From positions 21,390,001-21,454,000 of the forward strand of contig OZ024741.1 in the NCBI GenBank assembly GCA_964016885.1: a DNA stretch of 64,000 bases, written 5' to 3'. The DNA is from Eledone cirrhosa (Eukaryota). Within the stretch, counting starts at the first letter, position 1, and each line of letters opens with the position of its first letter. Under the pieces are notes generated by a model. The model was not told the DNA's origin, searched no databases, and worked only from the letters and a program-made list of their open reading frames with translations. Below, in pieces: positions 4,627 to 13,065 of the stretch. The position numbers and the translations under genes are program-made.

Positions 4627-5181
4627 TGCAGAGATATAAATGAGATAAGAAAAAGATAATAGGACAAATAGAAACTAGTTCTGTAGGTAAAATAGCTCAG
4701 ATGAAAAACAGAAGTTATACAATATACATGCATATACTGAGAACTTTACGATGGTGTGTGACAGTGACCCAGAATTTGCGAAATATTAATTCAATAAGCA
4801 ACGTGGTTTAAATTAAATTCTGCAAAGTTGTAATATACAGAATCACGTGGGTGGAGTGTCTACTCAGTGGTGAAGAGAGCAGAGGGGACAGAGCAGCTGT
4901 CACCGGTCGTTATAATATATATATATATAATATATATATATATATATATATATATATATATATATATATATAAATGAGACGTATAGAGATTGTTTTAGCA
5001 AGAAGCTAACGGCATTCTATAACATATATGCGACTATAACGTCAATATATATATATATGCGAAAGTTCTATTTAAAATTGTTGGGATACAACAAGTAAAT
5101 ATTTTTATAACTGATATAAAGCACTCGACAAATATTTGGAGTAGATATACAAAGCTTATTTGTAAAACTGTTATATATTGT

Positions 5182-5244
5182 ATTTTGTCTGATGAAGGTA
5201 TACCATAATTTAATTTGGTATCCCTGAAATATGTATAATGAAAT
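5182..5244 (+). ncRNA. Type I hammerhead ribozyme, family A
   Basis: Stem I ATTTTGT / CTGATGA (5189) / stem II AGGtATACCA..TGGTATcCCT / GAAA / TATGTA / TA (AUA cleavage triplet) / ATGAAAT, overlapping AATAAA. Confidence 0.75.
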
Positions 5245-5760
5245 AAATATGGTTTTATAAATTTAGTTTCCATTTATTAATATCGTATATATATATATAT
5301 ATATATATATATATATATAATATATATGCAGATTATATATATATATATATATATATAATTGTTTCTACTTTAGGCACAAGGCCAGCAATTACCCAGTGCA
5401 TTACTGGTACTTTATTTTATCTACCCCGATATTTATATATAATATTTATATATAATATATATGCATATATATATATATATATATATATATATATATATAT
5501 ATATATATATATATATATATATATATATATGCATATCCATTTTTCACTATATATATATATATATGCATATATATATATATATGCATATATATATATATGC
5601 ATATATATATATATATATATATATATATATATATATATATATATATATATATATATATATATATATATATATATATATACATATATATATATATATATAT
5701 ATATATATATAGAGAGAGAGAGAGAGAGAGAGAGAGAGAGAGAGAGAGAGAGAGAGAGAG

Positions 5761-5860
5761 ATGAGATTCTACAGGACTAGAACTGTTTCATTCTTTAGAA
5801 ATCATCAGATTCCTGATGATTTCTAAAGAATGAAACAGTTCTAGTCCTGTAGAATCTCAT
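5761..5860. repeat. Perfect 48-bp inverted repeat (4-nt spacer) made of a hammerhead core
   Basis: 5761-5808 is the reverse complement of 5813-5860. Each arm reads CTGATGA-TTTCTAAAGAAT-GAAAC-AGTTCTA-GTC-CTGTAGAATCTCAT. Confidence 0.85.
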
Positions 5861-5992
5861 TTATATTAAAACTTTTATACTCTGCTATGTATTGAGTACC
5901 TTACTTACTGTGGTTACCTCCGATTCAACCCGGAATAACGTATATATATATATATATATATATATATATATACACGATATTAATAAAACCAT

Positions 5993-6052
5993 ATATTATA
6001 CATATTTCAGGGATACCAAATTAAATTATGGTATGCCTTCATCAGACAAAAT
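5993..6052 (-). ncRNA. Hammerhead family A copy with a deleted stem I 3' strand (probably defective)
   Basis: Minus strand CTGATGA AGGCATACCA..TGGTATCCCT GAAA TATGTA TA, but the downstream ATGAAATAA segment is missing. Confidence 0.55.
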
Positions 6053-7282
6053 ACAATATATAACAGTTTTACAAATAAGCTTTGACGTACCCTTTTAAAA
6101 TGCGACCATTATTTTTGGAAGCCATCATCCCTGAAATATGTATAATGAAATAAATATGGTTTTATAAATATAGTTTCCATTTATTAATATCGTATATCTA
6201 CTCCAAATACTTGTCGAGTGCTTTATATCAGTTATAAAAATATTTACTTGTTGTATCGCAACAATTTTAAATAGAACTTTTGCATATATATATATATATA
6301 TATATATATATATATATATATATATATATATATATATATATATATATATATATATAGTGAAAAATGGAACGGGAACAAAACAGAGAGGCAGTACGAACAA
6401 AGGTTTATTAGTTTCACGCTCTTATATATATATATATATATATATATATATATATATATATATATATATATATATATATATATATATATGCAGAGGTTAT
6501 ATTTAATTTGTTGGGATTCAACAAGCTTAAACATTTTTATAACTGATATAAAGCACTCAACAAATTAGTGGAGTAAATATACAATCACTAAATTCTGTGG
6601 ATGAATCTATATCCTGATTCTCTTTGAGTTGAGTTTGAATTATTTTTCCCACATCTTACGTTAACTATTTTTCCCATTTTGACGCTATAGTCACTTATAT
6701 ATTATGGAATACTGTTGGCTTTTTGCTACAATGTTTTCTATACCTTTCATTTATAATATATATGTTTCCATTTGTTAATATATCGTGTATATATATATAT
6801 ATATATATATATATAGAGAGAGAGAGAGAGCGAGAGAGAGACAGTTGTGAAGGCGCCAACTGTTACAGTGTGAATGTCTGCTAGCCTTTTCTCCTACAAT
6901 TCATGGTTAATTTCATTTGTCATAGAAATTTTTTTTCTTTCAACGAACAATACTTCCTTTCAATTTTCTTCTTGAATTTAAAAAGAAGAAAACGTTTTCA
7001 CTGGTTTGCTTTCTATCTGATTATTTTTTTCAACTGGTTCAATGATAAATGTATGTGAATATATATATATATATATATATATATATATATATATATATAT
7101 ATATATATATATATATATATATATATATATATATATATATATATATATATATATATATATATATATATATATATATAGATAGATAGATTTTGAGTTTATG
7201 TTGGTTGTATACCAACACCTCAGTATGCAGGCTGGAGCACTCGACGAAGTGCACAAGTTGGTTTGGTTACTCCGGAGTAGTG

Positions 7283-10073: not shown

Positions 10074-10583
10074 AAATAGCTCTGTTCTATACATAGAGCA
10101 CTCTTCTTTCCATTGCTTTTCCTTCAAAATTACCTAACATATATATTTATACTCTCGGGTCTTGATTAATCGTCCCCACCCCACGCTTATTAATTTTTTA
10201 AGACATCAAACCCCTACTCACCCCGCTTATTAAATTTTGCTAATCTATCTCCAGTGAAATTTTATTTTAAGTGATAGCATTCCTGCATCAATTAATTTTC
10301 TTTATACGTTAAAAGACATGTACATTACTAGAAATCCCATACGTTATGAAATATATAGGATGGGTTGGGGTCTCAATATGTAAACTAAACAACTGATAAA
10401 TTATCGATCCCTCGCCCATTATTTGGGATTCATATATATATATATATATATATATATATATATATATATATATATATATATATATATATATATATATATA
10501 TATATATATAGAGAGAGAGAGAGAGAGAGAGAGAGAGAGAAAATGCGAAGTAGTTTCAGATGTTAAAGTCCTTTATTAGTAAT

Positions 10584-10658
10584 GCTGTGATACATATTTC
10601 AATGACAACACTGGCCACAAGATTCCGTATACCCAGTGCCGTGACATCATCAGACAGC
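10584..10658 (-). ncRNA. Type I hammerhead ribozyme, family E
   Basis: GCTGT / CTGATGA / TGTcACGGCACTGG..CCAGTGTTGTcATT / GAAA / TATGTA / TC (AUC) / ACAGC, AATAAA 6 nt downstream, TATATAA just upstream. Confidence 0.8.
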
Positions 10659-10861
10659 TTCTTATATAATAAGGTTACCTTCCCAAGGCAATCCAAACAA
10701 ATGAGAAGGGAACGGACAAGGCGTGTGTTCTTGAATCGCCTGCCCGTTCCCCTGTGGTCAACAATTCACCTCCAATATATATATATATATATATATATAT
10801 ATATATATATATATATATATATATATATATATATATATATATATATATATATATATATATA

Positions 10862-12365
10862 TAGGCAAAGGCCTATAGCAGCGGTATGTCCCATTGCGGG
10901 CTCTGCAACCTTGAATTGCTGCACATCTTAAGGAACAATAAAATGCTACTCAACAGCAAAATAGAAAGGTCAATTTTCTGCAGACATAGGATTGCTACAA
11001 AATTCGCGAGATTTAAACCACCCTCATTTGAACCAGCTTCCCCTATTTTAAGGGAAAACCACGTAGCATTTAACATATGAAATCCATATTCTCACACAGC
11101 CCACTTCAGAACCAGAATCTACTATAAACACCTTATAGCCTCCCTAAATCTATACCACTAGGATGGGGCAGTAATGTCTACACTTATCTTGTCAGCCCAT
11201 AAATCAATCCCATCTTTGCTGTTGTTCACTCCTTCGGACCAAACAATTATATCTACGTATCTCACATTAGCACTCATGATCCCTAACAGATGAACTTAAT
11301 TCTAAGTACATTATCTTATTACTCCTACACTCCTTGAAATCTTATTTTCTTCTTCTTATTATTATTATGATCATCTCAATGTATCCCTAATTTTATTTAT
11401 CATGTTCTCTCTATTTACCATGCACATTTTATTATTTTATTACTTTTATTGTCTCTATTATTGTTGTTATTATTGTCTTATTTATACACTATTTGTTATT
11501 GATGTTGTGAAAACTAAACCCCCATGATTCGAACTAACAATCCCAACTTTTAGAATAGGCCACTTAAATACCGAATCTACAACTTCACTTAATACCACAT
11601 AAAAGCCATATATCTCTATGCACCCACTCTATCATTCTCACTAAGTTGATATAACGAAAATACTTATCTGTCAAACTATAAATCAATCTCCGGTTTATTG
11701 CTAGTGTGCTTTTAGACCTACAGCACACGTATATACCTCATAATTACTCCTAAATCCTGACTCCAGGTACATTTTATCAGTTATTTCTTCACCACCTTAA
11801 TACTAAATCTAATGTACCCTATAGCAGTTTTCACATGTCAATTTCATACATCTGTATTATATCAGTTCGTTTAATATGCTAGATTCATCATTATACTCTA
11901 TTTTTTTACTTATATTGATGTTATTATTTTAACTATTCAGTATCTAGTTATTTTATTATTGATATTATTGTTCTGGTTTAATACCACTCCTCTATAAAAG
12001 CCATGCCTGGAGTATCTTCCTCACTTTCGCACGCTCTGATGAAACGACTGGTTATAAACAAAGTATTGGAGATCGATTGACGCAACATCAAGCGAGTAGT
12101 GAACTCTAGACCTATCAGATCAAAGAAACAATTGTCAGCAATGTGAATAAAGCCCTTATTGTATAGCCAACCATGTCACTCTTCTTTCTTGAATTATTAT
12201 TACTCCAAGTATAAACTACATAGAAATCACCGCGAACTCGCAGCATCACTATGGAAACGTCTTGCTGAGTCAAACTAAGCCATACGTTAATACCATCCAC
12301 AACACGGAGTACTCTAACTGGACTACATCTAAGTGGACTGCCTATAACGATAACCTGTTATCCCG
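10862..12365 (+). mobile_element. Second, diverged 5'-truncated Penelope-like element
   Basis: Starts at a (TA)n junction with AKAYSSGMSHCGLCNLELLHI..LLNSKIE..FCRH..FKPP, homologous to the C-terminus of the 9160-9580 endonuclease. About 1.3 kb of 3' region with an HHR, ending at (TA)n. Confidence 0.75.
12030..12145 (+). ncRNA. Type I hammerhead ribozyme with long stem II insert, family F
   Basis: cacGCT / CTGATGA (12036) / ~82-nt insert / GAAA (12125) / CAATTG / TC (GUC) / AGCaatgtg, then AATAAA at 12146. TATAAAA at about 11993. Confidence 0.6.
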
Positions 12366-12508
12366 TATATATATATATATATATATATATATATATATAT
12401 ATATATATATATATATATATGTAAAAGTTCTATTTAAATTGTTGGGATACAACAAGCAAATATTTTTATAACTGATATAAAGCACTCAACAAATAATTGG
12501 AGTAAAAA

Positions 12509-13065
12509 TACGATATTAACAAATGGAAACTATATTTATAAAACCATATTTATTTCATTATACATATTTCAAGGACACCAAGTTAAATTATGGTGTGCTT
12601 TCATCAGATAAAATATAATATAGAGCAGTTTTATAAATAAATATTGACATACCCTTAAAGAATGCAACCATTACTGTTGGAAGCTCCCGGATAGTGGAGT
12701 TATATTTATACTTATAGTATTAGGTAAGTTAGTATTGGATAATTTTAAACAAGCCGTTGGGTTACGGAGAAAGAGAAAGAGAGAGATCAGAATAACAGAG
12801 AGAAATAAATAACCCAACGGCTTATTTAAAATTATCTAATACTAACTTACCTAATACTATAAGTATAAATATAACTCCACTATCCGGGAGCTTCCAACAG
12901 TAATGGTTGCATTCTTTAAGGGTATGTCAATATTTATTTATAAAACTGCTCTATATTATATTTTATCTGATGAAAGCACACCATAATTTAACTTGGTGTC
13001 CTTGAAATATGTATAATGAAATAAATATAGTTTTATAAATATAGTTTCCATTTGTTAATATCGTA
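12509..13065. mobile_element. Palindromic PLE pLTR element, ~256-bp arms, hammerhead family A on both strands
   Basis: 12509-12764 is nearly the reverse complement of 12810-13065. HHRs at 12552-12614 (-) and 12960-13022 (+). Confidence 0.8.
12960..13022 (+). ncRNA. Type I hammerhead ribozyme, family A variant
   Basis: ATTTTAT / CTGATGA / AAGcACACCA..TGGTGTcCTT / GAAA / TATGTA / TA / ATGAAAT. Compensatory stem II changes relative to the 5182 copy. Confidence 0.8.

Follow-up and report, generated by a model that had tools for sequence, protein, structure and literature searches.

The stretch of DNA analysed here is a 64,000-nucleotide window of the Eledone cirrhosa genome (OZ024741.1); all coordinates below are positions in that window, and the strand sign is written after the start of a core. 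Two divergent genes, PSAT1 on the minus strand and NOC3L on the plus strand, enclose a nest of hammerhead ribozyme (HHR) motifs that spans 4911-13075, its near edge some 300-430 bp upstream from the start codon of PSAT1. We attribute these motifs below to insertions of Penelope-like elements (PLEs), very probably of at least seven families. A first-pass annotation, made from the sequence alone, had placed the cluster between PSAT1 and NOC3L, and homology bears this out: a downstream PSAT1 exon matches phosphoserine aminotransferase (E 4.5e-9) and the NOC3L exon shares 86% identity with NOC3-like of Octopus vulgaris, while Pfam returned nothing significant for these exons. Simple runs occupy 16% of the nest. 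Its features, with families lettered A to G and with short and long ends as defined below, are as follows (UTR, untranslated region; a feature with no strand given has arms on both strands or none):

4561-4626, minus strand: first coding exon of PSAT1, start codon at 4626-4624 as read from the sequence
18801-19050, plus strand: N-terminal coding exon of NOC3L
4911-13075: 20 (TA)n runs of at least 8 units that flank and separate the insertions
5058-5285, plus strand: family A insertion A1, an inverted tail (5058-5150) joined to a 5'-truncated arm with its core at 5189; predicted cut after 5237 (AUA), plus strand
5762-5940: family C inverted pair; the plus arm has core 5813, a 4-bp stem III, the long end and a predicted cut after 5851 (GUA), and the minus arm (core 5808) is truncated at stem I and has the short end
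5975-6283: family A insertion A2; minus arm with core 6045, plus arm truncated inside stem II and carrying the tail
6491-6787, plus strand: A-related insertion A3, an inverted tail and a diverged 3' end with no hammerhead core
7186-7692: family B inverted pair, 183-nt arms 100% complementary; 7383- has the long end, 7594+ the short end and a predicted cut after 7638
7806-9850, minus strand: family D element, comprising the C-terminus of a GIY-YIG endonuclease (9163-9579), a 3' UTR with an internal (TA/CA)n at 8680-8930 and two 235-nt units, and a hammerhead (core 7985, minus strand) with a 105-nt stem II and a predicted cut after 7862 (GUA)
9580-9850, plus strand: inverted truncated arm of family D, with tail
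9870-10135: family E inverted pair; core 9967- with a stem III mismatch in this copy, plus arm truncated and carrying the tail
10541-10775, minus strand: 3' end of family F with its core at 10653 and a predicted cut after 10589 (AUC)
10864-12365, plus strand: family G, with the last ~40 codons of a Hydra-type endonuclease (EN), 3' UTR, hammerhead (core 12036, plus strand, 83-nt stem II, predicted cut after 12136, GUC) and a tail to the long end
12421-13075: family A insertion A4, 257-nt arms 99% identical; 12607- has the long end, 12967+ the short end and a predicted cut after 13015

The nest holds 12 CTGANGA cores. GAAA and a UH triplet come after each of them, in the order of type I, and the cores start at 5189+, 5813+, 5808-, 6045-, 7383-, 7594+, 7985-, 9967-, 10653-, 12036+, 12607- and 12967+. 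All three stems can be found by inspection in ten of them. The earlier count was at least 11 type I motifs; all of its cores are present, with starts some 5-10 nt off, but there are 12 and several are the paired arms of one insertion. The cores fall into seven families, in agreement with the earlier estimate of about seven: A (5189+, 6045-, 12607- and 12967+), B (7383- and 7594+), C (5813+ and 5808-), and the single-core families D (7985-), E (9967-), F (10653-) and G (12036+). Their sequences had been called unrelated outside the core, which is correct between families but not within them, as four cores belong to family A and three pairs (7383/7594, 12607/12967 and 5808/5813) are the arms of single inverted insertions. 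Because several cores are two arms of one inverted insertion, the nest amounts to about ten insertions and not to eleven unrelated motifs. AATAAA occurs within 60 nt downstream of 7 of the 12 cores, against a background of 13%.

The cores were scored with a strict descriptor that demands stems I, II and III. In its first form, stem II was limited to 60 nt and had to pair from its first base; families C, D, E, F and G were missed for this reason, and the limits were then widened. Of the 12 nest cores the strict descriptor scores 8. It scores nothing in the remaining 56 kb of the window, and when the nest was stripped of TA and shuffled by dinucleotides 200 times, no shuffle gave a match. The four still missed after widening are 5808- (the 5' strand of stem I is lost at the junction), 6045- (stem I is reduced to 3 bp by partial deletion of its 3' strand), 9967- (mismatch in stem III) and 12036+ (stem I short or bulged); 5808, 6045 and 9967 are the three cores that we count as damaged. 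Core 5813+, previously described as a core only, is complete, with a 6-bp stem I, a 3-bp stem II and a 4-bp stem III. A core at 9092- was also considered and was left out of the count, as no paired hammerhead scored at that site.

Are these motifs conserved as ribozymes? Mismatch to the majority base was measured at 11 core positions and in the flanks of BLAST-collected copies, among which overlapping loci may repeat a few rows. The core and flank values are 1.7 and 6.2% in family A, 1.8 and 7.0% in B, 2.3 and 6.4% in C, 0.2 and 3.8% in D, 1.1 and 5.1% in F, 2.6 and 3.6% in G, and 2.7 and 1.8% in E, so the core is the better conserved part in six of the seven families. In an 8-row alignment of A-like hammerheads, compensatory change is seen at 7 of 18 pairs and 96.5% of cells are paired, a value above all 500 shuffles and all slid controls; because the descriptor picked five of the eight rows, the count of covarying pairs is biased. 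Judged from sequence, this conservation and covariation fit selection in active lineages and are silent on transcription of the truncated nest copies. Minimum free energy (MFE) folding forms stems I and II in A, B, D and F. Stem III is an 8-nt palindrome in these four and in G, and its pairing between molecules has calculated energies of -2.2 to -10 kcal/mol, which fits cleavage as dimers. We predict that the hammerheads would cleave weakly, as dimers via this palindromic stem III or with the help of protein; C and E, whose stem III is closed by a loop, may act as monomers. Those in the truncated, likely promoterless copies of the nest are probably inert passengers.

The elements to which these ends belong were sought in the rest of the genome, where the loci examined were best-scoring matches. 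Family copies are 85-100% identical and have a fixed 3' end at (TA)n and a variable 5' end. First-look candidates number 1,027 for A, 231 for B, 226 for C, 1,948 for D, 1,662 for E, 2,643 for F and 3,548 for G, figures that are of a lower-bound kind and are not copy numbers; the GIY-YIG C-terminus at 9163-9579 gave 62,581 such candidates and 150 scored matches at 96-100%. A TA run lies within 200 nt 3' of the predicted cut in 52 of 55 copies of A, 42 of 43 of B, 23 of 25 of C, 32 of 54 of D, 14 of 19 of E and 19 of 19 of F, and family G copies end before the (TA)n at +228. A full-length family D element (locus L201) consists of a pseudo-long terminal repeat (pLTR) with a hammerhead, a tail, an open reading frame (ORF) of 830 aa for reverse transcriptase (RT) and EN, a 3' UTR, a second hammerhead and (TA)n; its hammerheads are 4,004 nt apart around the ORF, and those of a family A element (L204) are 3,960 nt apart around an RT-EN ORF. 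The order in full-length elements is pLTR(HHR)-tail-RT/EN ORF-3' UTR-HHR-(TA)n. Pfam gave no family match for the full D ORF or for the EN fragment, and assignment to PLEs was made by motifs and homologs. The 830-aa ORF has RWR, DKT, YRDD, CxCX5C and CxxC..E..N..CxH and no CCHH; it is the ORF examined with an intact N-terminus, and RWR and DKT were seen there. The CxCX5C linker was found in ORFs of A, B, C, D and G and in L306 (family F), CxxC and CxH were found in those of A, B, C, D and G, and GIY-YIG is C-terminal. The marks of PLE structure, 5' truncation, an inverted 5' copy and a tail at one end, are all seen.

A Hydra-type ORF lies upstream on the same strand in 16 of 24 loci for D, 10 of 24 for G, 2 of 23 for B (L054 and L068) plus L207, and 1 of 29 for A plus L204 and L209 (L206 duplicates one place). 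For C it was found at first in 0 of 23 loci and, after walking upstream, about 2 kb away in L282/L292, L288 and L294, and for F a Hydra-type EN lies upstream in 1 of 25 (L306), beyond a 3' UTR of at least 960 nt. Low fractions are expected, because the loci extend 1.5 kb while the UTRs run 1-2 kb. On this evidence A, B, C, D and G are linked to ORFs with Hydra-clade marks, F weakly so and E not at all. Such autonomous ORFs in the same genome support the PLE pLTR origin and microsatellite targeting proposed at first pass, and the suggestion of non-autonomous or retrozyme families finds no support in A, B, C, D and G, so that E and, more weakly, F remain the candidates for it. We regard the nest elements as new families of known Hydra-clade PLEs. 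An assignment of family F to a Neptune type, from L099, was rejected: (TA)30 and the inverted tail of F separate the L099 EN from F. Separately, a second PLE type (L202:3-830, L099, L293 and L321), with a CX2-5CxxC-like linker and H/H motifs, is present in (TA)n beside Hydra elements; the label Neptune-like is taken from the published clade description.

How common are such hammerheads? For the class seen most often, whose stem III is the palindrome AUAURUAU, one exact pattern has 80,762 matches in the 3.0-Gb genome, against 171 in the reversed control, and a family D 20-mer adds 4,848 matches against 0, which gives at least 85,000 such motifs. Sixty 10-kb stretches, picked at round coordinates over 25 large contigs, hold 31 descriptor matches against 0.3 in shuffles, and extrapolation gives about 155,000 hammerheads genome-wide (bootstrap 80,000-250,000); Hydra-type sequence is present in 9 of the sixty and the second PLE type in 4. 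The commonest pattern has 7 matches in the nest against 0.22 expected (~30 times the genome average), and the densest 8 kb among the first 100 pattern matches on contig C1 (10.5 Mb) has 4. Such a density is probably rarer than one 8-kb window per thousand; locally the nest is truly extreme, but what it exemplifies occurs throughout the genome, and its structure is not unique. The axolotl genome is about ten times larger. With other descriptors, published counts of minimal hammerheads are ~2,000-9,000 per genome in schistosome, coelacanth and Xenopus (PMC4209133), and more than 6,000 motifs are given for a coral and 126,247 for axolotl (PMC7229834; bioRxiv 10.64898/2026.07.22.740005). Loci L002-L271 contain at least 33 further hammerhead types, distinguished by stem III and stem I, a few of them variants of nest families; another type forms a 310-bp pair in L265. 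The best random stretch has 7 descriptor matches, all in one array (L256:456-3366, that is C11:15000456-15003366). Seven units of 482-492 bp are repeated there head to tail; every unit contains a type I hammerhead (stem III ACUAGU) and (TA)n in its interior, and the 10-kb stretch has no PLE protein match, so that the array looks like a non-LTR retrozyme.

Beyond the predicted cut, on its 3' side, the copies have two fixed end points, which we call short and long: A +48/+138, B +54/+150, C ~+10-20/+89, D +61/+198, E +37/~+105 and G +61/+228. Of 63 deduplicated inverted insertions, 60 combine a short with a long arm, 3 are short plus short and none is long plus long (p 4.5e-15), where independent arms would give the mixed combination at most half of the time; these pairs come from the best-scoring loci, and a single duplicated insertion may account for two B loci. 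Arms were labelled by alignment to the tail, and labelling by exact motif gave 54 of 64, with 9 short plus short owing to point changes. Every one of the seven nest families has [A/G]CTC at a distance of 2-15 nt beyond the short end, with GAG[T/C] farther downstream to pair with it; in family E a G-C replaces an A-U of this hairpin. The ACTC/GAGT motif is present in 81 of 126 distinct long 3' sequences, many of which are copies of nest families, against 0.6% of shuffles, and also in families outside the nest (4/4, 3/3 and 1/2). The hairpin was defined after the data had been seen, and it is therefore a lead for a protein-binding or start-positioning element and not a result.

These observations would fit the following series of events. 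The GIY-YIG endonuclease likely cuts TA repeats and so places the hammerhead-bearing 3' ends in (TA)n. If the anole Poseidon element in vitro is a guide, a protein dimer would nick both (TA)n strands, and reverse transcription would start inside the RNA at the short and long sites, one per DNA strand, perhaps guided by the shared ACTC/GAGT hairpin. The two cDNAs would stop early and then be joined head to head. The insertion would remain flanked by TA, some elements would add TA carried in their UTRs, and later families could land there. Because insertions run past the cut site, the template would have to be uncleaved RNA or circular RNA, the latter as proposed by Cervera and de la Pena (PMC4209133), and the present data favour neither.

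We consider it very probable that the 8 kb consist of about ten separate 5'-truncated insertions from at least seven PLE families, five shown and two likely to be of the Hydra clade, whose 3' ends (pLTRs) carry hammerheads and lie in (TA)n. Several results weigh against this or against parts of it. Rfam, the check proposed at first pass, finds no hammerhead family in the nest at gathering score or E<=5 and returns for it sub-threshold microRNA-like hairpins and other chance matches only. The MFE monomer folds of C, E and G contain no hammerhead (z ~0); the core of family E is no better conserved than its flanks, and an upstream ORF was found for it in 0 of 24 loci. The choice of rows in the A-like alignment and the use of best-scoring rather than random copies both count here, as do the post hoc definition of the hairpin and the many nest-family copies among the 126 sequences examined for it; the motif was not found in six other types with at least two copies or in the one Hydra-linked family of L246.

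Could the cores instead be chance matches in AT-rich DNA, or palindromic chimeras of the assembly? Beyond the Rfam result, this might be argued from public DNA contigs over 12425-13400, among whose listed matches none crosses the window's own A4 junction. These contigs have very high depth and leave the unique flank 13118-13282 uncovered, from which we conclude nothing. Contigs of public runs contain many different family A inverted joints, however, and the arms differ systematically at their ends; with the empty shuffles and the excess over the reversed control, this makes chance or artefact barely credible. That E, and perhaps F, are non-autonomous elements of retrozyme or MITE (miniature inverted-repeat transposable element) type, moved in trans by Hydra proteins, is unlikely but deserves more weight. 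The recovered copies of E are short inverted pairs in which no element sequence precedes stem I, to which the missing ORF link may be added, and E shares the tail hairpin with its G-C for A-U change; the query was itself an inverted pair, however, which selects such copies, the long 3' UTR and one upstream EN speak for an autonomous F, and the nest has no non-coding head-to-tail tandem hammerhead array, whereas animal retrozymes are tandem repeats. We judge it very improbable that selection maintains the cluster for a regulatory role, with ribozymes or poly(A) signals as a barrier that separates the divergent promoters of PSAT1 and NOC3L. Its nearness to the PSAT1 start codon, its cores on both strands and the AATAAA after seven of them would suit such a device, but several insertions are very young (99.5-100% identical to other copies), three cores are damaged, such structures stand at tens of thousands of sites, and the insertion mechanism itself yields both orientations.

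If the nest is a set of PLE insertions, did they attract one another or merely collect? Identity of window copies to their best other copy is ~99.5-100% for A4, B and C, 98.5% for D, 97-99% for G, 93% for F and 90% for E, and the insertions therefore arrived at different times. Around 162 family loci 56 hammerheads of other families lie in 489 kb, or 0.115 per kb against 0.052 at random (2.2-fold), and TA runs there number 2.2 against 1.15 per kb (1.9-fold). The enrichment of TA runs means that the 2.2-fold value cannot separate feedback from prior TA-richness, a further point against the reading of the nest given above. The 3' UTRs of C and D carry (TA/TG)n, with alternating runs of 1,156 and 172 nt and a longest pure TA of 44 nt, whereas those of A carry little TA and those of B and G none. 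In a single case (L294), a D inverted pair lies inside the internal (TA)n of a C element, whose sequence continues on both sides. It is quite possible, though we lean against it, that the same elements gathered without feedback, in a region next to the PSAT1 promoter that was already TA-rich or open: the two enrichments are about equal, hammerhead count and TA runs correlate weakly in random windows (rho 0.26), and the window's elements stand side by side in TA and are not nested, whereas C and D bring their own (TA)n and D did land in that of C. The first-pass idea of a self-reinforcing landing pad is supported in part, by the differing ages, the element-borne (TA)n and the D-in-C insertion, and weakened by the near equality of the enrichments. 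Our wider proposal is tentative and may well need revision: about 10^5 hammerheads of dozens of PLE families, per megabase far more than in the published counts cited here, would be placed by obligate short/long paired priming set by the ACTC/GAGT hairpin, conserved among families with no other likeness, and their own (TA)n would feed back on insertion, inflating microsatellites and repeats and seeding long inverted repeats.

Part of this was already known. Hydra elements with hammerheads, (TA)n targeting and a tail at one end are described in the published account of the clade (PMC8557442), where Craig et al. (2021) report Hydra-1_Obim of Octopus bimaculoides with a hammerhead and a (TA)n preference and call the origin of PLE inverted structures, tails and microsatellite bias an open question. 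The first-pass suggestion of families undescribed in this lineage accordingly holds only in part. The likeness to that account extends to C-terminal GIY-YIG, RW[K/R], DKT, CxCX5C without CCHH, a hammerhead at the 3' end, insertion in (TA)n, 5' truncation, an inverted 5' copy, a tail at one end and presence in octopus. The differences are a unit of ~4.0 kb in A and D against generally <3 kb, tails of ~65-170 nt against 30-40 bp, a stem III that is mostly an 8-nt palindrome against 3-4 bp with a loop, a stem II of up to 83-115 nt, hammerheads unlike that of Hydra-1_oBim and, where the account lists a single octopus family, dozens of motif types in ~10^5 copies. The minimal hammerheads described from PLEs (PMC4209133) are likewise of type I with a long stem II, an extra base after A9 and a palindromic helix III; a genome has many families of them, for the most part as lone motifs from truncated PLEs, and pairs on opposite strands lie 100-700 bp apart. 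Their stem II is given as 7-8 bp, whereas those of D and G are long extended hairpins.

In the anole Poseidon element PAc, RT starts at two internal sites that bound the tail, both strands are cut and extended, and the hammerhead is dispensable for insertion in vitro, protein being required for cleavage (PMC11167929). The two tail-defining start sites, the use of both strands, a predicted dimer and a hammerhead upstream of the starts recall our elements. PAc is of a different clade, and no strand difference in start site was seen for it, against our 60 of 63 short plus long pairs; its stem-loop is AC-rich, and the ACTC/GAGT motif is not mentioned in the passages of that paper considered here. 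Animal non-LTR retrozymes have type I hammerheads in repeats and a proposed origin in PLE pLTRs (PMC7229834; bioRxiv 10.64898/2026.07.22.740005); they are non-coding head-to-tail arrays of 150-450 bp, whereas the nest consists of variably truncated ends of coding elements, and the retrozyme-like 482-bp array (L256) lies elsewhere in the same genome. The O. vulgaris repeat annotation lists Penelope-like families, and neither 'Hydra' nor 'ribozyme' occurs in its text (PMC13282606). We found no description of octopus or cephalopod hammerheads at such scale in a search outside which lay most subscription papers, Repbase and Dfam; no account of a Hydra-clade tail stem-loop, of PLE twin priming or of a short/long end rule, which some supplements outside the search may show; and none of nested or feedback microsatellite targeting or of an elongated (105-nt) stem II, the subscription papers being mostly outside the search. 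Five features did not turn up in this search and may be new: the scale across the genome, the strictness of the end rule, the tail hairpin common to the families, the variants with a long stem II and the element-borne (TA)n.

Several other features of the window may be recorded. Two short TA-bounded repeats in the nest, at 4974-5045 and 6357-6422, are present in 4 and 6 other loci, respectively, and are likely isolated tails or ends of additional PLE families. The near-perfect inverted arms at 7283-7694 (183 bp) and 12508-13066 (257 bp) would, if transcribed, form long double-stranded RNA, a possible substrate for A-to-I editing or silencing. Fragments at 5359-5430 and 23474-23760 belong to a common short interspersed repeat that we take to be an octopus SINE, and a short ORF at 15898-16140 presumably represents the C-terminal end of an RTE-type LINE (long interspersed nuclear element), whose motif it resembles. 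A 24.5-kb array at 39485-64000, with 832 copies of a 30-bp unit and extreme strand skew (GC skew ~0.9), presumably sits in a NOC3L intron; further minisatellites lie at 24784-26511, 29907-30680, 31415-34119 and 35635-36635, and a PSAT1 intron has a similar array (L203:2375-4400).

In itself the locus is a dense collection of remains from a transposon clade that was already described, and its value is as a pointer. Annotation based on Rfam misses these ribozymes altogether (0 in the nest), and it is by Rfam that 235 hammerheads were reported for giant squid. The nest adds natural predicted hammerheads with a stem II of more than 100 nt, and the genome around it supplies young, intact-looking Hydra ORFs, tens of thousands of insertions, an end rule and a candidate cis-element, with which PLE insertion would become directly testable.

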